A DNA stretch of 34,151 nucleotides from Candidatus Krumholzibacteriia bacterium. GTDB taxonomy: Bacteria; Krumholzibacteriota; Krumholzibacteriia; LZORAL124-64-63. Position numbers and translations under genes: made by a program. Location of the stretch: contig JAWOID010000113.1 of the NCBI GenBank assembly GCA_046484865.1, positions 1 through 34,151 on the forward strand. The letters run 5' to 3'. The notes beneath the pieces were generated by a model. It was given only the letters and a program-made list of their open reading frames with translations, searched no databases and was not told where the DNA came from. Every line of letters starts with the position of its first letter. The stretch's first letter is position 1. Shown in pieces: positions 5,237-29,811 of this stretch.

Positions 5237-6244
5237 ATGTCCCTGCAGCCCCTGCGCATCGCCGTCATCGGCGCCGGACACCTGGGCCGCTGGCACGCCC
5301 AGCAGCTCTCCACGCTCCCGGACGTGGAACTGGTCGCGATCTGCGACCCGGACCCGCGGTGCCGCGAACTGGCCGACCGGTACGGGTGCGCGCTGGTGCA
5401 GGAGGCGGCGGACCTCGACGCCGGCGGGCTGGACGGCGCGACCATCGCCGCTCCCACGACGCTGCACCACGATCTCGCCCGACACTTCCTGGAGCGGGAC
5501 GTGCCCTGCCTGGTCGAGAAGCCGCTGGCCGCCACGGTGTCGGATGCCCGCGCGCTCTGTGAACTGGCCGAGGGCCGCGGCGTGCTGCTGCAGGTCGGGC
5601 ACATCGAGCGGTTCAACCCCGCCCTGCGGGCGGTGGCACAGCAGATCCGGATGCCACGCTTCCTGGAGGCGGTGCGGCTGGCTCCGTATCCCTTCCGGGC
5701 CACCGACGTGGGCGTGATCCTCGACCTGATGATCCATGACCTGGAGATCGTCATCGCCCTGGTGCAGCGGGAGATCCGGGTGGTGCGCGCCTGGGCGGCA
5801 CCGGTGTTCTCGGACACCGAGGACCTCGCCGCGGCGTGGATCGAGTTCGAGGGCGGCGCCTGCGCGCAGCTGAAGGCGGTCCGTGCCGCCCTGCACAGCG
5901 AACGCCGCCTGCGGGTCTACCAGGACGACGGCTGCCTGGAGGTGGATTTTCTGGGCCGCACCGCGACCATGATCCGGCGCCGGGACGACGTCGATCCCGA
6001 GCTGGTGCCGTCCAGCTTGAGTCCGGACGATCTCGGCGGGATGGCCCCGGTCGACTTCGTGCGGGAACGGCTGGTGACCGTCGAACAGCCGGCCGTGGAC
6101 GTCGGCGCCAACCCGCTGCGCGACGAACTGGCGGCCTTTGCGGCGAGCATCCGCCTCGGCACGCCGCCCCTGGTCGGCGGCCGGGACGGTCTGCGGGCCA
6201 TCGAGGCCGCCGAGCGGGTTCGGACGGCGGCGGGCCTGGGCTGA
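5237..6244 (+). CDS. Gfo/Idh/MocA family NAD(P)-dependent oxidoreductase
   Basis: RBS GAGGAG. N-terminal Rossmann motif IAVIGAGHLGRWH. EKP motif (CLVEKPLA) characteristic of the Gfo/Idh/MocA family. C-terminal alpha/beta domain. Confidence 0.85.
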   Translation: MSLQPLRIAVIGAGHLGRWHAQQLSTLPDVELVAICDPDPRCRELADRYGCALVQEAADLDAGGLDGATIAAPTTLHHDLARHFLERDVPCLVEKPLAATVSDARALCELAEGRGVLLQVGHIERFNPALRAVAQQIRMPRFLEAVRLAPYPFRATDVGVILDLMIHDLEIVIALVQREIRVVRAWAAPVFSDTEDLAAAWIEFEGGACAQLKAVRAALHSERRLRVYQDDGCLEVDFLGRTATMIRRRDDVDPELVPSSLSPDDLGGMAPVDFVRERLVTVEQPAVDVGANPLRDELAAFAASIRLGTPPLVGGRDGLRAIEAAERVRTAAGLG

Positions 6245-6398
6245 GGGATGGCCACGGCGGTCGTGCGGAGGTTCCTGCGGCAGCCGCGCGGACGCACCCT
6301 GCCGGCCTCGAGCGCGTAATTCGGATGAATCAACATGTGAATCGAGTGGGGATCGCCACCATAGTCCGTTCTTTTTTGCCCCCGGCCCGAAAACCGCG

Positions 6399-6426
6399 TT
6401 GACATCCAACCGCGATCTCGTACTTT
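6399..6426 (+). promoter_or_regulatory. Sigma70-like promoter (TTGACA-N16-TACTTT) upstream of kamA operon
   Basis: TTGACA at 6399-6404, then a 16-bp spacer and TACTTT(AT) at 6421-6426. It sits in a locally AT-richer stretch, about 150 nt upstream of the GTG start at 6579. Confidence 0.4.
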
Positions 6427-6578
6427 ATCGCGCCACTACCGGGTGTGACCGGTCGGGAGGCCGGCCCCCGTGTCGTACCGACGGACCGTCCGGGCGCCGC
6501 CCCTGCGCGGCATCAGAATCCGGACGACCAGACCGCCGGCGAGGTTTGTGTGGTTGCCAGCCTTCGAGGAGGCGAACC

Positions 6579-7895
6579 GTGCAGAAGCACCTCGTGAGCG
6601 GTAGGGCGTACTCGTTCAAGGTTCCCGTGCGGATCCAGGAGGTCGAGTCGGACACGTCCGACGACCCACCGTCCGCAGGAGCTGCGCCCGCCGAAGACGA
6701 ACACCACCCTCCCTCCGATGACCTCACCCACCTGATCGCCAAGCGACTGCCCGCTTCCGGGCCGCGGACCCGCGCCTTCCGGCGCGCGTTCCATCCGCGC
6801 GTGACGGACCGCGAGTGGAACGACTGGCGCTGGCAGATGCGCCACCGTGTCCGCTCCTTCGACCAGCTCGACCGGATGGTCCGGCTCTCGGACCAGGAGC
6901 GGCATGCGCTCCAGCAGGGCGGATCGATGCTGCCGGTGGCGATCACCCCGTATTACATGAGCCTGCTCGATCCAGACGATCCGCTGCAGCCCCTGCGCCG
7001 CACGGTGATCCCCGTGCAGTCGGAGTTCCTGCGCTCCGTCGGCGAGTCGGACGACCCGCTGGGCGAGGACGACCATAGCCCGGTGCCCGGTCTCGTGCAC
7101 CGCTACCCGGACCGGGTGCTCTTCCTGGTGCACGACCACTGCGCCACCTTCTGCCGCTACTGCACGCGTTCGCGCGTGGTGGGACAGGGCGAGCTGAAGC
7201 CGGACAAGGAGCGCTTGGAGGCGGGGCTCGCGTACATTCGCCGCACGCCCGCCATCCGCGACGTGCTGCTCTCGGGCGGCGATCCCCTGAACGTGGCCGA
7301 CGACCGGCTCGACTGGCTCCTGGGTGAGCTGCGGCGCATCCCGCACGTCCAGTTCCTGCGCATCGGCACCAAGGTGCCGGCGGTGTTGCCTCAGCGAGTG
7401 ACGCCGGCGCTGGCGAGGATGCTGCGCAAGCATCACCCGCTGTTCCTGAGCATCCATTTCACCCACCCGGACGAATGCACCGTGGAGACGGCGCGCGCCT
7501 GCCGGCGCCTGTCCGACGCGGGCATCCCCCTGGGATCGCAGACCGTGCTGCTCAAGGGCGTGAACGACGACGTGGTGACGATGAAGCAGCTCGTCCACCG
7601 GCTGCTGGTCATGCGCGTGCGTCCCTATTACCTGTACCAGTGCGACCCGATCTCCGGATCGAGTCATTTCCGGACGAGCGTCTCCAGAGGGCTCGAGATC
7701 ATCCGGGGCCTGCGCGGGTGGACCACCGGATACGCCGTCCCCACCTACGTCATCGACGCGCCCGGCGGCGGCGGCAAGATCCCGCTGCAGCCGGACTCGG
7801 TGGCCGGTCGGGAAGGCGATGATCTCCTGCTGCGCAATTTCGCCGGCGAGGTGTTCCGGTACCATGACCGCGGCAGCAGCGTGGAGGTGATGTGA
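6579..7895 (+). CDS. kamA: KamA-family radical-SAM amino-acid 2,3-aminomutase (lysine 2,3-aminomutase-like, PLP-dependent)
   Basis: GGAGG RBS 8 nt before GTG 6579. Conserved KamA N-terminal WNDWRWQ motif. Radical-SAM CxxxCxxC (HCATFCRYCTRS). PLP-lysine motif PTYVIDAPGGGGKIP. Full-length C-terminal domain, so not the short EpmB type. The 5' part of track ORF 6138..7895 is rejected as read-through. Confidence 0.85.
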   Translation: MQKHLVSGRAYSFKVPVRIQEVESDTSDDPPSAGAAPAEDEHHPPSDDLTHLIAKRLPASGPRTRAFRRAFHPRVTDREWNDWRWQMRHRVRSFDQLDRMVRLSDQERHALQQGGSMLPVAITPYYMSLLDPDDPLQPLRRTVIPVQSEFLRSVGESDDPLGEDDHSPVPGLVHRYPDRVLFLVHDHCATFCRYCTRSRVVGQGELKPDKERLEAGLAYIRRTPAIRDVLLSGGDPLNVADDRLDWLLGELRRIPHVQFLRIGTKVPAVLPQRVTPALARMLRKHHPLFLSIHFTHPDECTVETARACRRLSDAGIPLGSQTVLLKGVNDDVVTMKQLVHRLLVMRVRPYYLYQCDPISGSSHFRTSVSRGLEIIRGLRGWTTGYAVPTYVIDAPGGGGKIPLQPDSVAGREGDDLLLRNFAGEVFRYHDRGSSVEVM

Positions 7896-8953
7896 TGCGC
7901 ATCGGCCTGACCTACGACCTCCGGGACGAGTACCTGAGCCTGGGCTACGACGAGGAGGAGACGGCGGAGTTCGACCGCATCTCCACCATCGACGAGATCG
8001 ACGACGCCCTGCGGCGGCTCGGACACGTCACCGATCGTATCGGCCACGCCCGGCAGCTGGTGGAGCGCCTGGCGGCGGGCGAGCGCTGGGACCTGGTGTT
8101 CAACATCGCCGAGGGGATGCACGGGATCGGACGCGAGGCGCAGGTGCCGGCGCTCCTGGACGTGTATTCGATCCCCTACACCTTCAGCGATCCGCTGGTC
8201 CTCTCGCTGACGCTCCACAAGGGGATGACCAAGCGCGTCCTGCGCGACGCAGGCCTGCCCACCAGCGCCTTCGTCGAGGTGGCCGGCCTGGCCGACCTGG
8301 AGGGACTGAACCTGCCGTTCCCGCTGTTCGCCAAGCCGGTGGCCGAGGGGACGGGCAAGGGGATCGACGGCGATTCGGTGCTGCGTACGCCCGCCGAGAT
8401 GCACGAGCGCTGCGCCCTGCTGCTGGAGCGGTTCCGGCAGCCGGTGCTGGTGGAGACCTTCCTGCCCGGCCGCGAACTCACCGTGGGCATCACCGGCACC
8501 GGCGACCGCGCGCAGGTTCTGGGCACCCTCGAGGTGGTGCTGCTCGACGGCGCCGAGGCCGAGGCCTACACCTACACCAACAAGGAGAACTGCGAGGACC
8601 TGGTGGAGTACCGCCCCGTGGACGGCCGCCTCGATCCGCAGGTGCGTCGCGCCGAAGAGGCCGCGCTGGCGGCGTGGCGCCTGCTGGGCTGCCGCGATGC
8701 CGGCCGGGTGGACCTGCGCGCCGACGCGCAGGGCGTCCTGCAGATCATGGAGCTGAACCCGCTGGCGGGGCTGCACCCCGAGCATTCGGATCTGCCGATG
8801 ATCGCCACCGCTGCGGGCATGAGCTACGACGACCTGATGCGCCGCATCGTCGATTCCGCCCGCGAGCGCCTGGTGGTGGTGCCGCTGCGGGAGGTGACCG
8901 GCCATGCGTGTGCTGTTGCTGCACAACGCGGTGTCGCCGCACGCGGCGCCTGA
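7895..8953 (+). CDS. ATP-grasp ligase, D-alanine--D-alanine ligase-like (paralog 1)
   Basis: Start overlaps the kamA stop (GTGATGTGATG context; GTG 7892 or ATG 7895). Ddl-family motifs include …PFPLFAKPVAEGTGKGI…, …LVETFLPGRELTVGI… and …GRVDLRADAQGVLQIMELNPLAGL…. Confidence 0.8.
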   Translation: MRIGLTYDLRDEYLSLGYDEEETAEFDRISTIDEIDDALRRLGHVTDRIGHARQLVERLAAGERWDLVFNIAEGMHGIGREAQVPALLDVYSIPYTFSDPLVLSLTLHKGMTKRVLRDAGLPTSAFVEVAGLADLEGLNLPFPLFAKPVAEGTGKGIDGDSVLRTPAEMHERCALLLERFRQPVLVETFLPGRELTVGITGTGDRAQVLGTLEVVLLDGAEAEAYTYTNKENCEDLVEYRPVDGRLDPQVRRAEEAALAAWRLLGCRDAGRVDLRADAQGVLQIMELNPLAGLHPEHSDLPMIATAAGMSYDDLMRRIVDSARERLVVVPLREVTGHACAVAAQRGVAARGA

Positions 8954-9902
8954 CGAGGCGGACGTCCTCGCTCAGGTGGAGGCGGTCGCCGCCGCGCTGA
9001 AAGGACTGGGGCACGAGACCGCGGCGTTCGGCTGCAGCCTCGACCTGCAGGCCGTCGCCGGCGCCCTGGCCGAGTGGCGCCCCGGCGCTGTCTTCAACCT
9101 GGTCGAGAGCCTGGCCGGCCACGGACGTCTGATCCACCTGGCACCGGCCGTCGTGGAGGCGTCCGGCGTCCCGCTGGCGGGCTGCCCGACCGAGGCCATC
9201 TTCCTGACCTCGCACAAGCTCGTGGCGAAGGAATGCCTCCAGCGTGCGGGGCTGCCCACGCCCGCCTGGCTCGGCCCGGACGGCTCGCCCGGCGGGCGGC
9301 CTCCGGCGAACGAACCGCGGCAGTGGATCGTCAAGTCCGTGTGGGAGGACGCATCGCTGGGCATGGACGACGGTTCGGTGATCACCGGTACGGCCGCCGC
9401 CCGCGATCTCCTGCGGCAGCGGTGCGGCACGGCCGGCGCCCCCTGGTTCGCGGAGGCGTTCGTGGAGGGCCGCGAGTTCAACATCGCGCTGCTCGACGGG
9501 ACCGACGGCCCCCGGGTGCTGCCCCCGGCGGAGATGCTATTCGCGGACTACCCGGACGGCAAGCCGCGCATCGTGGGCTACGCCGCCAAGTGGCACGCCG
9601 ATTCCTTCGAGTACGGCCATACCGTGCGCACCTTCGACTTCCCGTCGGAGGACCGGTCGTTGCTGGACGAGCTGACCGATCTCTGCCACGCCTGCTGGCG
9701 GTCGTTCGGGCTGCGCGGCTGGGCACGGGTCGATTTCCGGGTGGACGCCGACGGGCGACCATGGATCCTCGAGGTGAACGCCAACCCCTGCCTGGCTCCG
9801 GACGCCGGCTACGTCGCCGCCGTCGAGCGGGCCGGTTCGACCTTCCCGCGGGCCGTGGCGCAGATCCTCGCCACGGCGGCCGCCGACGGCCGCCGGCCCT
9901 GA
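8904..9902 (+). CDS. ATP-grasp ligase, D-alanine--D-alanine ligase-like (paralog 2)
   Basis: ATG 8904 overlaps the 3' end of paralog 1 by about 50 nt. Motifs include …QWIVKSVWEDASLG…, …FAEAFVEGREFNIALL… and …GWARVDFRVDADGRPWILEVNANPCLAPDAG… (Ddl-type Mg/ATP site region). Confidence 0.8.
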   Translation: MRVLLLHNAVSPHAAPDEADVLAQVEAVAAALKGLGHETAAFGCSLDLQAVAGALAEWRPGAVFNLVESLAGHGRLIHLAPAVVEASGVPLAGCPTEAIFLTSHKLVAKECLQRAGLPTPAWLGPDGSPGGRPPANEPRQWIVKSVWEDASLGMDDGSVITGTAAARDLLRQRCGTAGAPWFAEAFVEGREFNIALLDGTDGPRVLPPAEMLFADYPDGKPRIVGYAAKWHADSFEYGHTVRTFDFPSEDRSLLDELTDLCHACWRSFGLRGWARVDFRVDADGRPWILEVNANPCLAPDAGYVAAVERAGSTFPRAVAQILATAAADGRRP

Positions 9903-9919
9903 CGGGAGGAAGTCGCCGC

Positions 9920-11656
9920 ATGTTCCGCATCCGACGCATCCATGACGACGCCCTGCCGGTGAACCTGGCCGCCCTCGAGCAGGTGCAGGCCATCCTGCGC
10001 GACCGCTTCCCGGACGCGCCCGACAAGGACGCCGACGAACTGCCGTCCCGCCTGCGCGACCCGTACCTGCACCGGTTCCACGGCGTGCTCTACGTGGCGG
10101 AGAAGCAGAGCGGGGGCGGGGTGCAGGGGTTCGCCCTGGTGCTGCACGATGCGCAGCTGCGGATGCTCTATCTCGACTACATCGCCGCCCAGGCGCGGCT
10201 CACGAGCCGCGGCATCGGCGGCGCCCTCTACCAGCGGGTCCGCGACGAGGGCAAGGCGCTGAACGCCCGCGGCGTCTTCTTCGAGTCGCTCCCGGACGAC
10301 CCGGCCGACTGCGGCGACCGGGCGCTGCTCGTCGCGAACAAGGCGCGGCTGCGCTTCTACGAGACCTTCGGCGCCCGGCCGCTGGTGAACAACGATTACA
10401 CCAGACCGGTGCGCCCCGACGACACCTGCATGCCGTATCTGGTCTACGATCCCCTGGACGGCAAGGCGCCGGGCCGCCGCTTCGTCCGCGAGGCGGTCCG
10501 CGCCATCCTGGAGCGCAAGTACGCCCACCTGTGCCCGCCCGAGTACGTGGAGGCGGTGGTCCGCTCCTTCAAGGACGACCCGGTGCAGATGCGCGCTCCG
10601 CGCTACCGCAAGGAACCGCGGCCGGTGGCACCCGCGGTGGTGGGCCAGGAGCGGATCGCGCTCATCGTCAACCAGAAGCACGACATCCACCACGTTCACG
10701 ACCGGGGCTACGTGGAGGCGCCGGTGCGCGTATCCCGCATCCTGGCCGAGCTGGACCGGACCGAGGCCTTCGAGCGCCTGGAGGCGCGGGAACGCGGCGT
10801 CGAGCACATCAAGCAGGTGCACGACCGCGGCTACGTGGAGTACCTGCGACGGGTCTGCGCGGGGCTCGACGCGAAGCAATCGGTCTACCCGTACGTCTTC
10901 CCCGTCCGCAACGCCAGCCGGCCGCCGCAGGATCTGGCCGTGCGCGCCGGCTACTACTGCATCGACACCTTCACTCCGCTCAACCAGAACGCCTACAAGG
11001 CGGCGCGGGGGGCGGTGAACTGCGTCCTGGCCGGTGTGGAGGAGATCAGACGCGGCCGGCGGCTGGCCTATGCCCTGGTGCGGCCGCCCGGCCACCACGC
11101 GGAGCGGAGGTCGTTTGGCGGCTTCTGCTACTTCTGCAACGGCGGGATCGCGGCCAGCGAGCTGGCGCGCCTGGGCAAGGTGGCTCTGCTGGACATCGAC
11201 TACCACCACGGCAATGGCCAGCAGGACATTTTCTATGCCCGCGACGACGTGCTGACGGTCTCGATCCACGGCCATCCGCGGTTCTCGTACCCCTACTTCT
11301 CGGGCTTCGCCGAGGAAGAGGGCGAGGGCGCCGGCCGCGGCTTCAATCTCAACCTGCCGCTGCCGGAGACCATCGATGCGATCCGCTACCGCGAAGCGCT
11401 GGAGCAGGCGCTGCGCCGGGTGCGTTCGTTCAAGCCGGCGGTACTGGTGGTGTCGCTGGGGCTGGACACCGCCAAGGGTGACCCGACCGGCACCTGGTTC
11501 CTGGCGGCCGACGACTTCTTCGAGAACGGGCGCCGCATCGGCGCCATGGGCCTGCCGACCCTGGTGGTGCAGGAGGGCGGCTACCGCACCCGCACCCTGG
11601 GTCGCAACGCGCGCGCCTTCTTCGAGGGGCTGCGCAAGGGAGAGCGCGAATCGTGA
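9920..11656 (+). CDS. Bifunctional fusion: N-terminal GNAT acetyltransferase domain + C-terminal histone-deacetylase/acetylpolyamine-amidohydrolase (HDAC/AcuC/APAH) family domain
   Basis: GGAGG RBS before ATG 9920 (MFRIRRIHDD…). N-terminal ~180 aa carry GNAT motif A (…SRGIGGALYQRV…). C-terminal ~390 aa carry the HDAC signatures RPPGHHA, DIDYHHGNG, SLGLDTAKGDP and QEGGY. The upstream part of track ORF 9074..11656 is rejected. Confidence 0.8.
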   Translation: MFRIRRIHDDALPVNLAALEQVQAILRDRFPDAPDKDADELPSRLRDPYLHRFHGVLYVAEKQSGGGVQGFALVLHDAQLRMLYLDYIAAQARLTSRGIGGALYQRVRDEGKALNARGVFFESLPDDPADCGDRALLVANKARLRFYETFGARPLVNNDYTRPVRPDDTCMPYLVYDPLDGKAPGRRFVREAVRAILERKYAHLCPPEYVEAVVRSFKDDPVQMRAPRYRKEPRPVAPAVVGQERIALIVNQKHDIHHVHDRGYVEAPVRVSRILAELDRTEAFERLEARERGVEHIKQVHDRGYVEYLRRVCAGLDAKQSVYPYVFPVRNASRPPQDLAVRAGYYCIDTFTPLNQNAYKAARGAVNCVLAGVEEIRRGRRLAYALVRPPGHHAERRSFGGFCYFCNGGIAASELARLGKVALLDIDYHHGNGQQDIFYARDDVLTVSIHGHPRFSYPYFSGFAEEEGEGAGRGFNLNLPLPETIDAIRYREALEQALRRVRSFKPAVLVVSLGLDTAKGDPTGTWFLAADDFFENGRRIGAMGLPTLVVQEGGYRTRTLGRNARAFFEGLRKGERES

Positions 11657-12192
11657 GCCGAACCGAGCGCAAGCAGGCAGCCGGGACGCCCGGCCGGGGT
11701 GGCGCGGCCGCCGGTGCAGCGGTCCTGCGGGACGACGTACGACCTTCGGACGTGGCCGCCGTCCGCGACCTCGTGGCCGCCACCGGCTTCTTCAGTGCCG
11801 AGGAGGTGGGAATCGCCGCCGAGCTGGTGCAGGAGCACCTCGAGAAGGGAGCGGCCAGCGGCTACGAGTTCCTCTTCGCCGAGGTGGACGGGCGCGTGGT
11901 GGGCTACACCTGCTACGGCTTGATCCCGTGCAGCACCGTCAGCTGGGACGTCTACTGGATTGCGGTCGACCCGGACCAGCAGGGGAGCGGGCTGGGGCGG
12001 CGGCTCATGGCAAAGACCGAAGACCGGGCGCGCGCACGCGGCGGTGTGACGGTCTTCGCCGAGACCAGCGGTCGCGCCCAGTACGAGCCCACGCGCGGCT
12101 TCTATCACCGCTGCGGTTACCACGAGGCCGCGCTGCTCGAAGATTTCTATGCGGTCGGCGACGCCAAGGTGATTTTCGCGCGCCGCCTGTGA
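11653..12192 (+). CDS. GNAT family N-acetyltransferase
   Basis: GTG start overlaps the stop of the preceding gene (GTGA). GNAT core (…VGYTCYGL…WIAVDPDQQGSGLGRRLM…). Confidence 0.8.
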   Translation: MSRTERKQAAGTPGRGGAAAGAAVLRDDVRPSDVAAVRDLVAATGFFSAEEVGIAAELVQEHLEKGAASGYEFLFAEVDGRVVGYTCYGLIPCSTVSWDVYWIAVDPDQQGSGLGRRLMAKTEDRARARGGVTVFAETSGRAQYEPTRGFYHRCGYHEAALLEDFYAVGDAKVIFARRL

Positions 12193-12317
12193 ACACGGTG
12201 GCCTCCTCCGGTCGCCGGCCTCCGGTAGCCTGCCGTGGGGGCCTGCGCTAAGCTGGCGGGCAGACGCCGGCCACCGCGCTCCCGCCGCCGCGCTCCCGAG
12301 GACCAGGAGGACCGCCG

Positions 12318-13085
12318 ATGCCCGGAGCCAGCGCAGCCCTGCTCGCGAATCGCACGGCCCTGATCACCGGCTCCAGCCGCGGTATCGGCGCCGCCGTGGC
12401 CCGGCTGATGGCGCTGCACGGGGCCCGCGTGGCGGTGAACTACTGCCGCTCCGAGGCGAAGGCCCGGGTCCTGCGCGACGAGATCACCGAGGCGGGGGGC
12501 GAGGCCATCGTCGTCTGCGCGGACGTCACCAGTCCCGACCAGATCGAGTGCATGTTCGCCGAGGTCAAGGAAGCCTTCGGACCGGTGAACATCCTGGTGA
12601 ACAATGCGTCCATCAGCTTCCCGATCACGTCGTTCGTCGAACTCCGGTGGGACGACTTCATCCGCAAGCTCACCGACGAGCTGCGCGCCGCATTCCACTG
12701 CTGCCGCCATGCGGTCGACCACATGACCGAGAGCGGTGGCGGCTCGATCATCAACGTGAGCAGCGCCCTGTCGCGGCATCCCGGCCACGGCTTCGCCGCC
12801 CACTCCAGCGCGAAGGCCGCCCTCGACGCCTTCTCCCGCGACCTGGCCGTGGAACTCGGTCCCCAGGGCATCCGCGTGAACGTGGTTGCGCCGGGGCTCA
12901 CCCTGACCGACGCCACCGCCTACACCCCCGACGACCTGAAGGAGGCCATCGCCATGCAGACGCCGCTGCAGCGGCTGGGTCTGCCCGACGACATCAGCGG
13001 CACGGTGGTCTATCTGGCCAGCGACCTGTCGGCCTTCGTCACCGGCGCCTACATCCCGGTGAGTGGCGGCATCCAGATGATCTAG
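12318..13085 (+). CDS. SDR family oxidoreductase (3-oxoacyl-ACP reductase-like)
   Basis: RBS AGGAGG. TGSSRGIGAAVA cofactor motif, NNAS motif, and catalytic S…Y…K spacing (…SSA…K…). 255 aa. Confidence 0.85.
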   Translation: MPGASAALLANRTALITGSSRGIGAAVARLMALHGARVAVNYCRSEAKARVLRDEITEAGGEAIVVCADVTSPDQIECMFAEVKEAFGPVNILVNNASISFPITSFVELRWDDFIRKLTDELRAAFHCCRHAVDHMTESGGGSIINVSSALSRHPGHGFAAHSSAKAALDAFSRDLAVELGPQGIRVNVVAPGLTLTDATAYTPDDLKEAIAMQTPLQRLGLPDDISGTVVYLASDLSAFVTGAYIPVSGGIQMI

Positions 13086-14476: not shown

Positions 14477-14944
14477 TCAGCGGAAGAGTCGCCTCACCGC
14501 CGACCAGCTCGTCTCCTCGGCCGTTACCCCACATGGTTCGAACTGCCCGCGGATCGCGCCGTTGGGGAACGCGGAAGTGTGGACCTGGACGTAGATGTTG
14601 CCCAGGAACAGCGCCTCCACCTCGGTGGCGGTGGGCATCCACGTGCCGGTGACGGACTGCCCGCTTTCGAGCGGGAAGACGACCGGACCGTTCTCTCCGA
14701 ATGCTCCGATGTGCAGGTGAGCGCCGGTGACGTCCACGAGTCCCTGGTACTCGAGGTAATACGCCACCTCGGTCTGGGCGGCGTTCAGGAACAGAGCGGC
14801 ATGACCGGTCCCCGTGACCGGGGTCGGCGGTACCACCTCTGTCCCGTCGAGTCCGGCCACGAAGCTCCATTCGAGTGCTGCGGCTCCGCCGGCCAGCAGC
14901 AGACTGAACGCTCCGATCAGCATGATGCGCCTAGCAATGCTCAC
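14477..14944 (-). CDS. CHRD-domain secreted protein
   Basis: GGGAGGG RBS 6 nt before GTG 14944. Signal peptide (…RRIMLIGAFSLLLAGGAAA). CHRD signature GAHLHIGAFGENGPVV. Track ORF 14477..15133 is trimmed at its 5' end. Confidence 0.7.
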   Translation of the reverse strand: MSIARRIMLIGAFSLLLAGGAAALEWSFVAGLDGTEVVPPTPVTGTGHAALFLNAAQTEVAYYLEYQGLVDVTGAHLHIGAFGENGPVVFPLESGQSVTGTWMPTATEVEALFLGNIYVQVHTSAFPNGAIRGQFEPCGVTAEETSWSAVRRLFR

Positions 14945-15223
14945 GTGTTTCCCTCCCGTGACGCGAGACGTTCTGCCGGCCGCACGATATCGCACACCAT
15001 ATCGGCGATGGTGTCTGGTGCGGTTGACCGGCCCTTCCGTCGGCCGCGCGCGGGAGCGATCCTCATTCCCCCCACGGATCACGCGTCGAGCGACCGCATT
15101 CCGGTCTTGTCCGTGCAGAAACTGCTCTGTCAATAACAGTGGGAAGGAAAGGCGCGATCATCGGGGTGTCCCCGAACGGCGGCCCGAGAAACCCCCGATC
15201 CGCACGACCCCGCTGCCGGCGGC

Positions 15224-16149: not shown

Positions 16150-16527
16150 ATGACCGACTACCACGAGCCGTGGGACGCGCAGTCCGAGGAGGACCGGAAC
16201 ATCCACCGGGCTCTGATGAGCCTCAAGGAGGAGATCGAGGCGGCGGACTGGTATCACGAGCGCGCCGCCGCCACGCGCGACGAGTCCCTGCGCAAGATCC
16301 TCGTCCACAACCGCGACGAGGAGATCGAGCACTCCTGCATGCTGCTGGAGTGGCTGCGCCGCAGGATGCCGGCCTTCCAGGAGCAGCTCTCGCTCTACCT
16401 CTTCAAGGAAGAGGACATCACCGAGATCGAGGAGATGGCGGAAAGCGGCGACGAGGACGGGCAGGAAGTCGAGGCCGCCCCCGGATCGACCGGGCTCGGC
16501 ATCGGCAAGCCGAAGGGGGATGAATGA
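16150..16527 (+). CDS. Encapsulated ferritin-like cargo protein (EncFtn/Flp-type) with C-terminal encapsulin targeting peptide
   Basis: 125 aa. Di-iron E-x-x-H-type motifs (EEIEAADWYHERAA, EEIEHSCMLLEWL). C-terminal tail …GSTGLGIGKPKGDE resembles the G-x-L-G-I-G-x-L-K encapsulin cargo-loading peptide. Stop overlaps the start of the shell gene (ATGA). Confidence 0.7.
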   Translation: MTDYHEPWDAQSEEDRNIHRALMSLKEEIEAADWYHERAAATRDESLRKILVHNRDEEIEHSCMLLEWLRRRMPAFQEQLSLYLFKEEDITEIEEMAESGDEDGQEVEAAPGSTGLGIGKPKGDE

Positions 16528-17351
16528 TGGATTTCCTGCGCAGAGGGCTGGCGCCGGTGGCGTCCGGAGCCTGGGGTGAGATCGACGAGACCGTCGCACG
16601 CGTGCTGCGCGCGCAGCTCCGCGGCCGGTCGGTGGTCGACGTGGAGGGTCCGTTCGGGCTGGACCGGGCCGCCGTGGGCCTGGGCCGCCTGAATTCGGTC
16701 AGCAACCCCGAGAAGGGTGAGGTTGGTTTCGGCGTGCACCGCGTCCAGCCGCTGGTGGAGACACGCGTGTCGTTCGACCTGGACGTCTGGGAGCTGGACA
16801 ACCACGCCCGCGGCGCGGTGGACCTGAAGCTCGACGCGGCCGAGGAGGCCGCGCGCGCCATCGCCCGCTTCGAGGACGAAGCGGTCTTCAACGGTTTCGA
16901 CGACGGCTCGATCGTCGGTCTGACCGAACTCCGGGAACACGACCCGGTGGCCATCGCCGCCGAGCCCGGATCGTTCCTCGACGGAGTGGCGCGGGCGCTG
17001 CTCACGCTCCGGGACGCCGGCGTGGAAGGGCCGTACGCCCTGGTCCTCGGCCCCGACCTCTACCGGCTGTACGCCACCCATGCCGCAGGCTATCCGCTGA
17101 AGAAGCAGGTCCAGAATCTCGTGGAAGGCGACGTGGTGTACGCGCGCAGTCTCGAAGGGGCCCTGCTGCTGAGCCAGCGCGGCGGCGACTTCGTGCTGAC
17201 GCTGGGCCAGGACCTGGCGGTGGGCTACGAGGGCCATACCAACCGAACGGCCACCCTCTTCATCACGGAGTCGTTCACCTTCCGCGTGGTCGACCCGAAC
17301 GCCGGGGTCGTGCTCCCGGTGAAGAGCAGCCAGGACGCTGTGCCCGGGTAA
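16524..17351 (+). CDS. Family-1 encapsulin nanocompartment shell protein (HK97-fold, linocin M18-like)
   Basis: 275 aa, typical family-1 length. Sequence recognised as encapsulin shell (…VETRVSFDLDVWELDN…, …GPYALVLGPDLYRLY…, …FVLTLGQDLAVGYEGH…). Immediately downstream of the cargo gene, with start/stop overlap. Confidence 0.8.
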   Translation: MMDFLRRGLAPVASGAWGEIDETVARVLRAQLRGRSVVDVEGPFGLDRAAVGLGRLNSVSNPEKGEVGFGVHRVQPLVETRVSFDLDVWELDNHARGAVDLKLDAAEEAARAIARFEDEAVFNGFDDGSIVGLTELREHDPVAIAAEPGSFLDGVARALLTLRDAGVEGPYALVLGPDLYRLYATHAAGYPLKKQVQNLVEGDVVYARSLEGALLLSQRGGDFVLTLGQDLAVGYEGHTNRTATLFITESFTFRVVDPNAGVVLPVKSSQDAVPG

Positions 17352-17491: not shown

Positions 17492-18388
17492 CTAGACAGC
17501 GTCCAGGTACTCCGCGACCGCGACGCGAGCGAACTCCGGCAGCGCGAAGGCCGCCCGGTGGATGTCGAGGTTGTAGTAGCGCCCCGGCAGCCCGGCGGCC
17601 ACCGCGCGTTCGGGCTTCAGGTCGCCGACCGGGCGCAGCCCCAGCGACGCGAAGCTGAACGACCAGAGACCACCCGGATAGGTGAGGTTGGAGTAGTCGT
17701 AGAGGTTGAGCTGCGGGAACACATCCCGCAGCGTTCCCATCAGGCTGCGCTGGGCTGCGCCCTCGTACCACGGGTTCTCACCCTGGGAGACGACGATCCC
17801 CTGCCGGGTGAGCACCCGCTTCACGTCGCCGTAGAATTCGCGGCCGAAGAGCGGCTGGGCCGGTCCGATCGGGTCGGTGGAATCGACCAGCACCACGTCG
17901 TAACGATCGGCGGTGTCGCGGACGAAGGCCACGCCGTCGCCGATGGTCACCTGGACGCGAGGATCGTCGAGGGCGGCCGACGTCAGGCGCAGGTGCTCCC
18001 GGCAGGCGTCTACCACCATCGCGTCGATCTCGACCAGTCGCACGTGCTCCACCGACGGATGGCGGAGAACTTCGCGCACGGTGCCGCCGTCACCGCCGCC
18101 GATGACCAGGACGCGGCGCGGATCCGGGTGCACGCAGAGCGGCACGTGCGCGATCATCTCGTGATACGCGAACTCGTCGCGCTCGGTGACCATCACCAGG
18201 CCGTCGTTGAGCAGCATGCGACCGTGGCCGGCCGTCTCCACCACGTCGACGCGCTGGAACTCGCTGCGGCCGGAGAAGAGCACGCGGGTGACCCGGAAGC
18301 GGCTGGCGTAGATGTCGCGGAAGCGCTCCTCGATCCAGAGGTCGAGCGGCGCGCCCTCGCCGGCGCCGGCGGGCTGGGTCTCGTTCAT
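17492..18388 (-). CDS. speE: Spermidine synthase (aminopropyltransferase)
   Basis: 298 aa. Motifs VLVIGGGDGGTVREV (AdoMet-derivative binding) and VVLVDSTDPIGPA. The start ATG overlaps the stop of the upstream gene (ATGA). Track ORF 17492..19390 is trimmed to this start. Confidence 0.9.
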   Translation of the reverse strand: MNETQPAGAGEGAPLDLWIEERFRDIYASRFRVTRVLFSGRSEFQRVDVVETAGHGRMLLNDGLVMVTERDEFAYHEMIAHVPLCVHPDPRRVLVIGGGDGGTVREVLRHPSVEHVRLVEIDAMVVDACREHLRLTSAALDDPRVQVTIGDGVAFVRDTADRYDVVLVDSTDPIGPAQPLFGREFYGDVKRVLTRQGIVVSQGENPWYEGAAQRSLMGTLRDVFPQLNLYDYSNLTYPGGLWSFSFASLGLRPVGDLKPERAVAAGLPGRYYNLDIHRAAFALPEFARVAVAEYLDAV

Positions 18389-19362
18389 GACGTGCTCCTC
18401 TCGACCCGCGGCTCGCGCTGCAGGTGGGCGTATTCCACGGCATAGCCGCAGCTCAGGACCCGCCCCGTCCGGTGGGTGACGGTCAGGCCTCCGGTCACGG
18501 CGCCGGCCTCGTCCGGGTCCAGCGCGAGACTCCTCTGGAAGATGAGCAGCTCCGCCCTGGCCGGGCGGAACGCTTCCAGCAGGCGGGCGACGACGGCCCG
18601 CTGGCCGGCCGCGTCCAGCTGCCGGTTGGTCTCGAAGCTCACGTACGATCCGATGCGCTGCGGGGTCACGTGCAGGGTGGCGTAGGTGGAGCCGCCGAGG
18701 GCGTTGTAGGAGTAGCCCTGCGGCGCGAAGATGTGGTCGTCCACCGCCAGGTCGCCGAAGAGGTCGGCCAGGCCCGACCGGCGCCGCAGCTCGGGAGCGT
18801 CGTTGCGGCCCGGGACGAACAGCCCGCCCACATCGTCGGGGATGCCGTGCATGAGCAGCTCCAGCGTCGTGTCGTCGGCGTCCGGTTGCCAGGCCCGGTC
18901 CAGATGGAACAGCGCGATGTGATCCCCGTCCGCATCGCCGAACACCTCGGTGGCGCCCGCGACCAGCGCCCGCAGCCGCACCACGTCGTCGTCGAACGAC
19001 GACCGCTGCAGGTGGGGGAAGTTCTCGTTCTTGCGCTCGTAGATCACCGATGCCAGCGCGGCGCCGGTGCCCACCTGCCGCAGGATGCGCTCGGCCGCCA
19101 CCGCCAGCGTGGTCCGGCCGCAGGTGATCATCAGCAGGCGGTCGTCCCAGACGAAGAGGCTCGACTCCGAGAGCAGGTAGGCGTCGCATTCCGGGCTCGA
19201 GAGCTGCGAGAGGATCTCGGCCTCCGCCGCGGCCACGACGCCCTCCCAGAAGGTCGGTCCCAGCCCGCGCAGAGGCGGCGCCGCGGGGGCGAGCAGCACC
19301 TCCAGCTTCTTCTCCGGACCCTCGAACAGCATCTCCACCTCCTCCGTCGTCGCGGCGGCCAA
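18385..19362 (-). CDS. S-adenosylmethionine decarboxylase proenzyme, class II (eukaryotic-type)
   Basis: 325 aa. N-terminal FEGPEKKLEV… matches the eukaryotic-type AdoMetDC signature. LLSESSLFV contains the Glu-Ser autoprocessing site that generates the pyruvoyl cofactor. Upstream of and overlapping speE. Confidence 0.85.
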   Translation of the reverse strand: MAAATTEEVEMLFEGPEKKLEVLLAPAAPPLRGLGPTFWEGVVAAAEAEILSQLSSPECDAYLLSESSLFVWDDRLLMITCGRTTLAVAAERILRQVGTGAALASVIYERKNENFPHLQRSSFDDDVVRLRALVAGATEVFGDADGDHIALFHLDRAWQPDADDTTLELLMHGIPDDVGGLFVPGRNDAPELRRRSGLADLFGDLAVDDHIFAPQGYSYNALGGSTYATLHVTPQRIGSYVSFETNRQLDAAGQRAVVARLLEAFRPARAELLIFQRSLALDPDEAGAVTGGLTVTHRTGRVLSCGYAVEYAHLQREPRVERSTS

Positions 19363-27744: not shown

Positions 27745-29811
27745 TCAGGCCGGCGCAGCCCCCGGCGCTGCCTCCGGCGCTGCCTCCGGCGCAGCCGTCG
27801 GTCCAGCCGCGGCGCCGGCACGGATCTGCTCCAGGTTCCAGAGCGCGTCGGCCGCAGCCGGCTCGCGGGCGAGCACCGACAGCAGCAGTTCCTCGGCGCT
27901 GGCCGCGTCGCCGGACCGCCAGCGGCAGACCGCCAGATTGCTGGCCGCCCGGCTCCAGCGCGGCCGATGGCGCAAAACGGCGGTGAACAGGCGTTCCGCG
28001 GTGCGCAGGCGCCCGGAAGCGAACAGGGTCTCGCCGGTGTCCAGCCAGTCGTGCAACTCGCCGTCGGCGGCCGGCACCGGCTCCCAGGCGGCCGCATCCA
28101 GGACGGGGACGAAATGCAGCGCCGGGTGGTAGCCGCCGGCAAGGACCGGCGAGTGCGCCATCGCTCCGGGTCCCCGAGCACCGGGCGGCAGTTCCCACAG
28201 GTCGCAGAGTTGACGCCACGCAGCAGCCGTGGCCACGTCCGCTCCCGGCACGGGCGTCGTCGCGGCGGCGGGGGTGGTGACCACTCCCAGGCCGGCCACC
28301 GTCGCGCGCAGGCAGAGGTCGGCCACACCCGCTGCGGCGTCGTCCAGGCCCGGTTGCCACCCGCCGGCGCGGGCCAGGGCGCGGGCGGTCACCAGCAGCA
28401 GGACGGGCGGCAGGATGAGCGCCCGTCCCGGGCCGCCGCCGTTGCTACCGTGGCCCACGATGCCGGTGCTCGGATCGGCCGTCGCCGCCAGCATCGCCGC
28501 GAGCCAGCCGGGCTGCGGACATGTCCGTGCGTCGAGCAGCGCGACGTGCCGGCCGTGCGATCTCGCCAGCGCGGCGTTCACCGCGGCGGCGAGGCCGGTC
28601 GCCGGCGGCGTCGGCGCGACGGCCACCGTTCCGGATCCTGCTCGGGCCAGCCGGGCGCAGTCCTCGCGAGCGGCTGCCGTGTCGTCGCGGGGCACCACCA
28701 GCCACTGCGCCGCGGCACCGGCCGCGCGCGGATCCGGGAGCGAGACCTGTGCGCCGGGCGACCCCGCCAGCACGATCACCGTGGCGGCCGGTCCGGCCAC
28801 CGCGTCCACCGCTGCCGGTGCCGCCGCTGCCGTCGCCGTTGCCGTCGCAGCTGCCGGTGCCGCCGCAGCTGCCGGTGCCGTCGCAGCTGCCGTCGCCGCT
28901 GCCATCGCCGTTGCCGCCGCGGTCGATCCCGCCGCCGCCGGCGGCTGCTCGCGCCGGCGCCAGCGGGGCGGGACGTAGGGCGCGGGAGTGCTTGCGTCCG
29001 GGTGCGATTCGGCCACCTGCTCCGGCGTCTCGACGAAGTCCGGCACGACCCGGCCGCGCCAGCGCCGGTCGAGCAGCGCCATGTTCTCGCGCACCCGCGA
29101 CCAGCGCTGGGTCCCGCTCTGCGACTCGTAGTGGATCACCACGCTCTCGGGCCGGTAGACGGTGCCGTATCCGGCCGCGGCGATCCTGAAGCAGAGATCC
29201 ACGTCCTCGTTGCCGTTCCAGAAGCTCTCGTCGAAGCCGTCGAGCCGCCGGAAGAGCTCCGCCCGCACCAGCAGGCACGCACCGGTCACCGCCTGCAACC
29301 GCAGCGGCCGGCTGGCGCCGGGGAAGTCGGCCGGTTTGCGGTAGCTCAGATGGCGCCCGCCGAGGAGGTGGCCGGCACCCGTCCACTGGTCGATGACGGC
29401 GACTCCGGCGTGCTGGATGGTGCCGTCGGGAAACAGCAGCCGTGCTCCGACTGCCCCGATCTCGGGATCGTCGTCCAGGGTGACGATCAGCGGGGTCAGC
29501 CAGCCGGGCGTCACCTCCATGTCGTTGTTCAGGAACAGGAGGTGGCGGCCGCGACCGGCGGCGGCGCCCTGGTTGCATCCCCGGGCGAAGCCGCCGTTGG
29601 CGGGATTGCTCACGACACGCAGACGACCGCGGGCGGTCTCCTCCCTCAGGTACTCGGCGGTTCCGTCGCTCGAGCCGTTGTCCACCACGACGATCTCGAA
29701 ACGGCCCGGTGGCGTGTGCCGGTGGATCGATGCCACGCAGGCCCGCGTCAGTTCGAGCCGGTCGAACACGGGGATCACGATGGAGACGTCGAGATGCGGA
29801 TCGGTGGACAT
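27745..29811 (-). CDS. Multidomain family-2 glycosyltransferase (GT2 domain + Ala/Thr-rich linker + second GT-like domain + C-terminal TPR-like region)
   Basis: ATG at 29811 (MSTDPHLDVSIVIPVFDRLELT…). GT-A motifs VVVDNGSSDGT, NNDMEV and the DxD-like FDES. Low-complexity AAATAMAAATAAATAPAAAAAPAAATATATAAAAPAA segment. A second region, HVALLDARTCPQPGWL…, follows. The C-terminus ends with APEAAPEAAPGAAPA. The 5' part of track ORF 27745..31764 beyond 29811 is rejected. Confidence 0.75.
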   Translation of the reverse strand: MSTDPHLDVSIVIPVFDRLELTRACVASIHRHTPPGRFEIVVVDNGSSDGTAEYLREETARGRLRVVSNPANGGFARGCNQGAAAGRGRHLLFLNNDMEVTPGWLTPLIVTLDDDPEIGAVGARLLFPDGTIQHAGVAVIDQWTGAGHLLGGRHLSYRKPADFPGASRPLRLQAVTGACLLVRAELFRRLDGFDESFWNGNEDVDLCFRIAAAGYGTVYRPESVVIHYESQSGTQRWSRVRENMALLDRRWRGRVVPDFVETPEQVAESHPDASTPAPYVPPRWRRREQPPAAAGSTAAATAMAAATAAATAPAAAAAPAAATATATAAAAPAAVDAVAGPAATVIVLAGSPGAQVSLPDPRAAGAAAQWLVVPRDDTAAAREDCARLARAGSGTVAVAPTPPATGLAAAVNAALARSHGRHVALLDARTCPQPGWLAAMLAATADPSTGIVGHGSNGGGPGRALILPPVLLLVTARALARAGGWQPGLDDAAAGVADLCLRATVAGLGVVTTPAAATTPVPGADVATAAAWRQLCDLWELPPGARGPGAMAHSPVLAGGYHPALHFVPVLDAAAWEPVPAADGELHDWLDTGETLFASGRLRTAERLFTAVLRHRPRWSRAASNLAVCRWRSGDAASAEELLLSVLAREPAAADALWNLEQIRAGAAAGPTAAPEAAPEAAPGAAPA
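28808..28925. repeat. Imperfect tandem GC-rich repeats (GCYGCYGCCGTCGCC-like) encoding the Ala/Thr-rich linker of the GT2 protein
   Basis: Reiterated GCCG(C/T)(C/T)GCCGTCGC and GCAGCTGCCGGTGCC units seen directly in the sequence. Lies inside CDS 27745..29811. Confidence 0.6.

Follow-up and report, generated by a model that had tools for sequence, protein, structure and literature searches.

The locus described here raises the question of why a gene for an aminomutase of the KamA family should be followed by genes for two ATP-grasp ligases that resemble D-alanine--D-alanine ligase (Ddl) and by two further genes encoding acetyltransferases of the GNAT family, one of them fused to a deacetylase of the HDAC family. 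The five genes span positions 6579-12192 on the + strand of the window, by which we mean the entire 34,151-bp contig of a Candidatus Krumholzibacteriia metagenome-assembled genome (MAG), with a G+C content of ~70%. In order, they encode KamA (6579-7895; GTG start, 438 aa; NCBI MFO7654676.1), the ATP-grasp amide ligases 1 and 2, here AG1 (7895-8953; 352 aa; MFO7654677.1) and AG2 (8904-9902; 332 aa; MFO7654678.1), a GNAT::HDAC fusion (9920-11656; 578 aa), and the small GNAT acetyltransferase GNAT5 (11653-12192; 179 aa; MFO7654680). Our working hypothesis is that this cassette encodes a cytoplasmic, self-contained pathway to an N-acetylated beta-lysine di- or tripeptide, to which an acetyl-switch module may be added, a reading to which we assign a probability of about 0.5.

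All five genes are co-directional and translationally coupled. As read from the sequence, the final base of the KamA stop codon TGA (7893-7895) is also the first base of the AG1 start codon ATG at 7895, giving a TGATG overlap in the context GAGGTGATGTGATGCGC; AG1 and AG2 overlap by 50 nt, a 17-nt gap separates AG2 from GNAT::HDAC, and GNAT::HDAC and GNAT5 overlap in the sequence GTGA. Ribosome-binding sites of the GGAGG type precede four of the five starts (at 6567 for KamA, 7883 for AG1 and 8890 for AG2), with GNAT5 as the exception. Our gene calls for KamA, AG1, AG2, and GNAT5 are exactly those of the NCBI annotation, and GNAT::HDAC corresponds to a 578-aa NCBI protein of the same contig with 100% identity and coverage. 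The single-strand arrangement with overlapping or near-overlapping junctions described in the first-pass annotation is therefore borne out by both the sequence and the NCBI calls, whereas the AG2/GNAT::HDAC gap had been given as 18 nt and the operon had been opened at 6399, a position that is the -35 hexamer of a putative promoter and lies ahead of the first gene. Pfam assigns Radical_SAM and LAM_C to KamA, Dala_Dala_lig_C to AG1 and likewise to AG2, Acetyltransf_1 and Hist_deacetyl to the fourth gene, and Acetyltransf_1/7/10 to GNAT5; the domains named in the first-pass annotation were thus all recovered except for the Ddl N-terminal domain PF01820, which Pfam did not detect in AG1 or AG2.

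An AG2 alignment was scanned against genomes, with each species represented once, and gave at least 600 stretches, 599 of them confirmed, from which the best 80 loci were taken for taxonomic labels. As the loci were seeded on AG2 alone, their remaining gene content is unbiased; genes were counted only where at least 2.6 kb of room was available, upstream of AG2 for KamA and AG1 and downstream for GNAT5 and the deacetylase. KamA was present in 54/58 AG2-seeded loci, AG1 in 52/58, GNAT5 in 52/58, and the GNAT::deacetylase gene in 24/58. Among the 44 loci that were complete on both sides, 19 had the architecture KamA-AG1-AG2-HDAC-GNAT5 and 15 had KamA-AG1-AG2-GNAT5, while KamA-AG1-AG2, AG2-GNAT5, and KamA-AG2-GNAT5 accounted for five, three, and two loci, respectively. 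Dozens of unrelated genomes show this colinear order, so that the KamA-AG1-AG2-GNAT::HDAC-GNAT5 arrangement is far beyond chance. Whether the five-gene order is conserved had been proposed as a check; the neighborhood is indeed kept across phyla, but the conserved core is KamA-AG1-AG2-GNAT5, i.e. smaller than five genes, and because the GNAT::deacetylase gene is absent from 59% of the cassettes it is an accessory and not an obligatory biosynthetic step.

The cassette order recurs in genomes labeled with at least 10 phyla, which going by their taxon labels are mostly anaerobes. The labels of the best 80 loci include Krumholzibacteriota, Fibrobacterota, Planctomycetota, Lentisphaerota, Kiritimatiellia, Spirochaetota, Acidobacteriota, Bacteroidota, Neomarinimicrobiota, and many Desulfobacterota (Desulfobacterales, Desulfobulbales, and Syntrophales); bins labeled Patescibacteria and Dependentiae may reflect binning errors. 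Flanked by unrelated sequence, the cassette order was found in Desulfococcus, in a Phycisphaerales MAG, and in genomes of 8.8 Mb and 3.7 Mb with related cassettes, and the order was also found in Planctomycetota and Desulfovibrio. Cultured carriers are Desulfococcus multivorans, Desulfovibrio mangrovi, and relatives of Desulfovibrio alaskensis G20; the cassette also occurs in a MAG that has been assigned to Syntrophus aciditrophicus. At 50% identity and E<=1e-30, the relatives of AG2 among 1.84 billion representatives fall into 1115 clusters, and full-length relatives of GNAT::HDAC with 59-73% identity occur in many metagenomes and genomes. Moreover, several cassette genes are naturally fused: AG2::GNAT5 fusions make up 26/150 of the best AG2 representatives (and occur in loci L051, L069, and L081), AG1::AG2 fusions 12/150 of the same set, and GNAT::HDAC::GNAT5 proteins of 750 aa are found in, e.g., Desulfococcus multivorans. 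Together, the three kinds of natural fusion and the conserved order therefore argue that all parts act in one pathway.

The first step of such a pathway would be set by KamA. The protein aligns over 357 residues to lysine 2,3-aminomutase from Clostridium subterminale (PDB 2A5H; 457 bits). In lysine 2,3-aminomutase (LAM), Arg134 binds the alpha-carboxylate of the substrate, Asp293 and Asp330 bind the epsilon-ammonium group, and Lys337 binds pyridoxal phosphate, and the two Asp positions are Lys and Asn in glutamate 2,3-aminomutase. In the alignment to 2A5H, KamA keeps the CxxxCxxC motif as well as Arg134, Asp293, Asp330, and Lys337 (Clostridium numbering); of 66 orthologues recovered from cassettes, all have the Asp293 motif (QCD) and 55 have the Asp330/Lys337 motif. 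Among NCBIfam models, the AblA model (TIGR03820) scores highest, yet at 485.9 bits KamA remains below its equivalog cut-off of 525.4 and is without the last ~56 positions of the model; the models for glutamate 2,3-aminomutase (421.8 bits, cut-off 650), arginine 2,3-aminomutase (378.2 bits, cut-off 600), and EpmB (251.5 bits, cut-off 369.3) follow. Because the lysine-binding Asp motifs are kept and the AblA model fits best, KamA is predicted to be a lysine 2,3-aminomutase that converts L-lysine to beta-lysine, which settles in favor of beta-lysine, rather than beta-glutamate or beta-arginine, a residue comparison that had been proposed for this aminomutase. Genes for lysine fermentation (beta-lysine 5,6-aminomutase, kamDE-kdd-kce-kal) were found neither in the window cassette nor among the recurrent neighbors of related loci.

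The EpmB score also bears on the idea that the ligases place beta-lysine, or a short beta-lysyl peptide, on a protein such as elongation factor P (EF-P) or a ribosomal protein, with the GNAT and the deacetylase editing this tag. Beta-lysine is known to be attached to EF-P, and ATP-grasp enzymes of the RimK and TTL types do tag proteins; in line with this, the best named model for GNAT5 is RimI (52 bits, under the cut-off), AG2 gives a weak TTL match, and in one locus efp lies upstream of cassette genes. Still, we consider protein tagging quite unlikely. An EpmB placement of the aminomutase, which had been named as a possible objection to a separate pathway, is not supported by a score well under the EpmB cut-off and far under that of AblA, and the cassette has no EpmA-like gene. 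The efp gene is close in only 1/84 loci (L082, 6549-7109), where it lies 870 nt upstream of AG2-GNAT5 with no kamA nearby, and it is not in the window; no candidate target gene is conserved beside the cassette, and the ligases fall in the small-molecule Ddl clade, not in the RimK clade. The likeness to EpmB/EpmA lies in a KamA-family aminomutase supplying beta-lysine for ligation to an amine, while the cassette differs in its long aminomutase of the LAM/AblA type and in lacking both an EpmA (LysRS-like) ligase and a linkage to efp.

We next turn to the ligases, both of which are named D-alanine--D-alanine ligase by NCBI and whose only solved relatives are Ddl and Van ligases (85 and 53 bits, respectively). 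AG1, whose orthologues in Desulfococcus and Planctomycetota share 59-61% identity with it, reaches 143 bits and its distant paralogue AG2 reaches 82 bits against the NCBI Ddl subfamily model NF002378, compared with a cut-off of 243; the cut-offs of other models lie far above these scores (404-1015 for Ddl equivalogs and 495-775 for Van-type ligases). We aligned both proteins to E. coli DdlB with hhalign, using a DdlB reference sequence that was not compared with the PDB sequence but whose numbering is self-consistent (E15 and H63 where expected). In this profile alignment, the equivalents of the ATP/Mg and transition-state residues K215, R255, D257, E270, and N272 are retained in AG1 and AG2, whereas the Ddl substrate triad Glu15-Ser150-Tyr216 is kept in neither: K215-Y216 of Ddl is K-E in AG1 and K-W in AG2, and Ser150 is replaced by Thr in AG1 and by Ala in AG2. 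AG1 and AG2 thus share with Ddl and Van ligases the fold and the ATP/Mg catalytic residues and differ from them in the scores, in the replacement of Tyr216 by Glu or Trp, and in a gene context unrelated to the cell wall. Judged from these features, they appear to be active amide ligases of the Ddl clade that are distinct from cell-wall Ddl, so that the concern raised at the outset, that they might be genuine Ddl enzymes, is not borne out. We give next to no credence to the alternative that both are true D-Ala-D-Ala ligases clustered with kamA incidentally: the NCBI name and the solved relatives speak for it, but it is at odds with the scores, with the replaced Tyr216, and with a linkage to kamA and GNAT genes that is conserved in >50 loci and includes gene fusions. 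The NCBI name is probably a misannotation of AG1 and AG2, and Ddl naming is likely to be a systematic misannotation across the whole ligase family.

Both GNAT domains, i.e. the N-terminal domain of the fourth gene and GNAT5, retain the acetyl-CoA motif. GNAT5 is a clear sequence orthologue (162 bits) of PDB 2R7H, an uncharacterized structural-genomics GNAT titled 'putative D-alanine N-acetyltransferase' and presumably from Desulfovibrio G20. AblA and AblB make N-epsilon-acetyl-beta-lysine, both in methanogens and green sulfur bacteria and also in Bacillus cereus, and we compared the GNATs with the AblB model TIGR03827. GNAT5 reached 12.9 bits against a cut-off of 205.1 and the N-terminal GNAT of the fourth gene gave no match, and by these scores GNAT5 is not an AblB-type beta-lysine acetyltransferase. 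This comparison weighs on the simplest alternative, namely that KamA and one GNAT make plain N-epsilon-acetyl-beta-lysine, the known osmolyte, with the ATP-grasp genes serving another purpose. AblA is the closest model for KamA, a GNAT is nearly always present, and the deacetylase could recycle the solute; nevertheless we hold this alternative to be very unlikely, given not only the AblB score but also the two ligases, AG1 and AG2, whose presence is more constant than that of the GNAT and which occur fused to it and to each other. This constancy and these fusions therefore place the ligases in the same pathway as the GNAT. In sum, the cassette resembles AblA/AblB in that a lysine 2,3-aminomutase comes first, an adjacent GNAT is expected to acetylate beta-lysine, and the system is cytoplasmic with no transporter; it differs in the type of GNAT, in two core ATP-grasp ligases, in the optional deacetylase, and in an expected product that is a conjugate.

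In the GNAT::HDAC fusion, the GNAT domain (residues 1 to ~217) and a subsequent short helical region and linker are encoded by 9920-10669 and the zinc deacetylase domain (residues ~262-578) by 10670-11656. The latter matches Hist_deacetyl with 246 bits and, in a search of PDB sequences, five structures of acetylpolyamine amidohydrolases (APAH) with 214-247 bits, compared with 186 for HDAC6; in a Foldseek search with the deacetylase model, the top 16 matches were all APAH with 36-39% identity. Among 38 deacetylase orthologues, no variation is seen in the His-His dyad, in the Asp/His/Asp metal ligands, or in the catalytic Tyr of EGGY. The domain is thus predicted to belong to the APAH-type clade of the HDAC family with its catalytic site intact. 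It has the fold, zinc site, and catalytic residues of the APAH enzymes of Mycoplana ramosa, Burkholderia, Marinobacter, and Pseudomonas, and is unlike them in carrying a GNAT at its N-terminus, with a second one at the C-terminus in some genomes, and in lying within a beta-lysine operon. Beta-lysine, or 3,6-diaminohexanoate, is putrescine bearing a carboxymethyl group; N-epsilon-acetyl-beta-lysine therefore presents essentially an N-acetylputrescine end, which would account for the recruitment of a deacetylase of the polyamine type.

The same observations support the strongest rival, in which the ligases build a cationic oligo-beta-lysine or beta-lysyl-polyamine as a polyamine surrogate and the GNATs and deacetylase tune its charge in the manner of SpeG/SSAT and APAH. 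The nearest solved relatives of the deacetylase act on acetylpolyamines, beta-lysine is chemically a substituted putrescine, and both GNATs marginally match streptothricin acetyltransferases, enzymes that act on beta-lysine chains; these matches (E ~1e-3) are, however, near noise and a hint at most. The proximity of polyamine genes had also been brought forward in the first-pass annotation, and the window does contain speD (S-adenosylmethionine decarboxylase; 18385-19362) followed by speE on the - strand (17492-19362 overall), where the spermidine synthase domain of speE is in the C-terminal half of a 632-aa open reading frame (ORF) and its true start is probably near 18370. Because flanks are not conserved across loci, we regard the link between speD/speE and the cassette as coincidental. 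Finally, Arg255 of Ddl contacts the carboxylate of the incoming amino acid, and its equivalent is kept in both ligases, so that an amino-acid nucleophile fits better than a polyamine, although this is a weak argument. Taking both sides into account, we regard a polyamine surrogate as unlikely.

Based on these considerations, we return to the acetylated beta-lysine peptide and suggest a three-step scheme. First, KamA would turn L-lysine into beta-lysine, a step that is well supported by sequence. Second, going by family chemistry, the conserved order, and the fusions, GNAT5 would N-acetylate beta-lysine; AG2 would spend ATP in an acyl-phosphate route to couple the beta-lysine unit to another amino acid, and AG1 would make a second amide bond, giving an N-acetylated beta-lysine di- or tripeptide. 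Third, where present, the GNAT::APAH-type deacetylase would put acetyl groups on, and take them off, free amino ends; this module would allow the product to be turned over, recycled, or shifted between a neutral and a cationic form, and we infer that it is an accessory for turnover or charge switching and not a deprotection step that the pathway requires. The logic has precedents: Ngg, a GNAT plus a Ddl-like ATP-grasp enzyme, builds N-acetylglutaminylglutamine amide (NAGGN), and the mammalian NAT8L and RIMKLA route makes N-acetylaspartylglutamate (NAAG). The cassette shares with Ngg/AsnO and NAT8L/RIMKLA the use of a GNAT and an ATP-grasp ligase to make an N-acetylated dipeptide and, in many lineages, shares with Ngg a fusion of GNAT and ATP-grasp domains, a likeness in domain content. 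The fusion order is reversed in the cassette, with ATP-grasp followed by GNAT; the cassette adds a second ligase and an aminomutase, its building block would be a beta-amino acid, and no AsnO-type glutamine amidotransferase is present in the window cassette or recurrent in related loci.

Several points weigh against this scheme. Sequence does not identify the substrates of AG1, AG2, or the GNATs, and the order of steps as well as the partner amino acids are guesses. Among the complete loci, 5/44 have no GNAT5 nearby, and no replacement gene was found in loci lacking it, so that some lineages may do without acetylation. In a few loci, AG2-GNAT5 stands without KamA in the stretch covered, and beta-lysine may therefore not be the only substrate of this pair. 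The sources of the hosts include freshwater, soil, peat, wastewater, and saline sites, which gives no special support to an osmolyte, and regulation is not obviously osmotic, with a sigma54 promoter in about a quarter of the lineages and an adjacent enhancer-binding protein in a few as well.

We next consider what the product might be used for. By clustering the flanking ORFs of 84 loci, we found no neighbor outside the cassette in >6 loci and no conserved transporter. Only one of the 14 intra-cassette gaps examined contains a candidate transporter: in a Desulfatirhabdium MAG (L012, 2156-3547), a 463-aa multi-pass membrane protein, apparently a transporter judging by its hydrophobic sequence, lies between AG2 and GNAT5. 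Because no exporter is conserved, the data suggest that the product is intracellular; most likely, it is an intracellular solute or a polyamine-like metabolite of anaerobic bacteria, and besides a compatible solute and a polyamine-like cation, a nitrogen-rich reserve may also be considered. A secreted beta-lysine secondary metabolite, such as an antibiotic or chelator that is acetylated for self-protection and deacetylated for activation, appears highly improbable. It is true that beta-lysine occurs in antibiotics of the streptothricin, viomycin, and negamycin types and that an acetylate-then-deacetylate prodrug logic is known, but no exporter, regulator, or tailoring gene is conserved, with a putative gene of the major facilitator superfamily (MFS) inside a single locus, and the near-uniform gene content across labels of at least 10 phyla, with cassette proteins 50-75% identical across genomes, is a pattern of physiology unlike that of variable natural-product clusters. 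PADLOC gave no match for any of the five proteins, which also counts against a secreted metabolite; a role in anti-phage defence, considered separately, was rejected on the same result.

We rate the cassette as joining an AblA-type beta-lysine route to a GNAT/ATP-grasp peptide route of the Ngg type and to an optional APAH-type eraser. Full-text searches of the searchable literature found no description of it, in agreement with the first-pass annotation, which did not recognize the gene combination as a described system, although an earlier in-silico mention may exist. To our knowledge, few fates of free beta-lysine are known in bacteria: it is acetylated to N-epsilon-acetyl-beta-lysine, used to modify EF-P, fermented, or built into a small number of actinomycete antibiotics; if our reading is true, the cassette would add a further one. 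Tentatively, and with less confidence than in the pathway itself, we extend this to the proposal that the cassette makes a new family of small molecules, which may be peptides of acetylated beta-lysine or oligomers of beta-lysine, that the GNAT fused to the APAH-type deacetylase toggles their charge as writer and eraser, and that they serve as a general cytoplasmic solute or polyamine substitute; this would be the first acetylation switch on a beta-amino-acid metabolite. Users of such beta-lysine compounds may include Desulfobacterota, Planctomycetota, Spirochaetota, Fibrobacterota, Krumholzibacteriota, Acidobacteriota, and Planctomycetes-Verrucomicrobia-Chlamydiae (PVC) relatives. The cassette is not rare, and its hosts, which include sulfate reducers, syntrophs, planctomycetes, and uncultured phyla, are ecologically important; moreover, the Ddl annotation of both ligases would mislead reconstructions of the cell wall and of metabolism. 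With four or five genes, a wide distribution, cultured hosts, and one component with a solved structure (PDB 2R7H), the cassette is a good experimental target.

As for expression, a possible sigma70-type promoter lies at 6399-6426 on the + strand, with the -35 element TTGACA at 6399-6404, a 16-nt spacer, and the -10 element TACTTT at 6421-6426. The evidence for it is weak: the promoter named in the first-pass annotation has a perfect -35 hexamer, but its -10 hexamer matches only 3/6 positions, and for this reason a consensus promoter scan of 6000-12600 called no promoter. The putative promoter is followed by a leader of ~150 nt (6430-6578) that extends to the kamA start and contains no known riboswitch. 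A riboswitch in this leader was considered and rejected, as an Rfam scan of the whole window at gathering thresholds was empty and a permissive scan of 6150-6800 gave matches at chance level; seven related loci likewise contained no Rfam family.

In other lineages, sigma54-like sites are found upstream of kamA in 15/61 loci, at ~0.5 per kb compared with a background of 0.065 per kb (~8-fold), while the window has no sigma54 site upstream of kamA. A gene for a sigma54 enhancer-binding protein lies directly upstream of kamA in Desulfovibrio mangrovi and on a contig with a 99%-identical copy of 2R7H, and in D. mangrovi the intergenic region contains TGGCAT-N5-TTGCT together with GGAAC/GTTCC palindromes. 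By locus, genes for such proteins lie beside the cassette at 3874-5465 in L087, at 3857-5569 in L088, and in L004 and L006; the carriers are Desulfovibrio and some Planctomycetota-like genomes, with TGGCAY-N5-TTGCW sites and GGAAC/GTTCC palindromes upstream of kamA.

The only recurrent extra gene, present in ~9 loci and absent from the window, lies between KamA and AG1 and encodes a CxxCxxCC protein (PF03692, YkgJ family) of ~170-200 aa, as at 7380-7886 in L004 and in L030, L037, L043, L072, and L085. The PF03692 family includes the flagellin lysine N-methylase FliB, and the protein could be an electron donor to the radical-SAM enzyme or a lysine-modifying accessory.

In the window itself, the cassette is followed after 125 nt, on the + strand, by genes for a short-chain dehydrogenase/reductase (SDR; 12318-13085) and an HI0933-like flavoprotein (to 14362). 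The 125-nt gap contains no terminator-like site and neither gene is recurrent in related loci; both may be co-transcribed with the cassette in this genome. Further downstream, a CHRD-domain protein (14477-15133, - strand; 96 bits) is unrelated to the cassette, and an encapsulin shell protein is encoded at 16524-17351 on the + strand (Linocin_M18, 283.6 bits). The G+C content, ~70% elsewhere in the window, has a local peak of 78% at 28001-29000, within very long overlapping ORFs on both strands.

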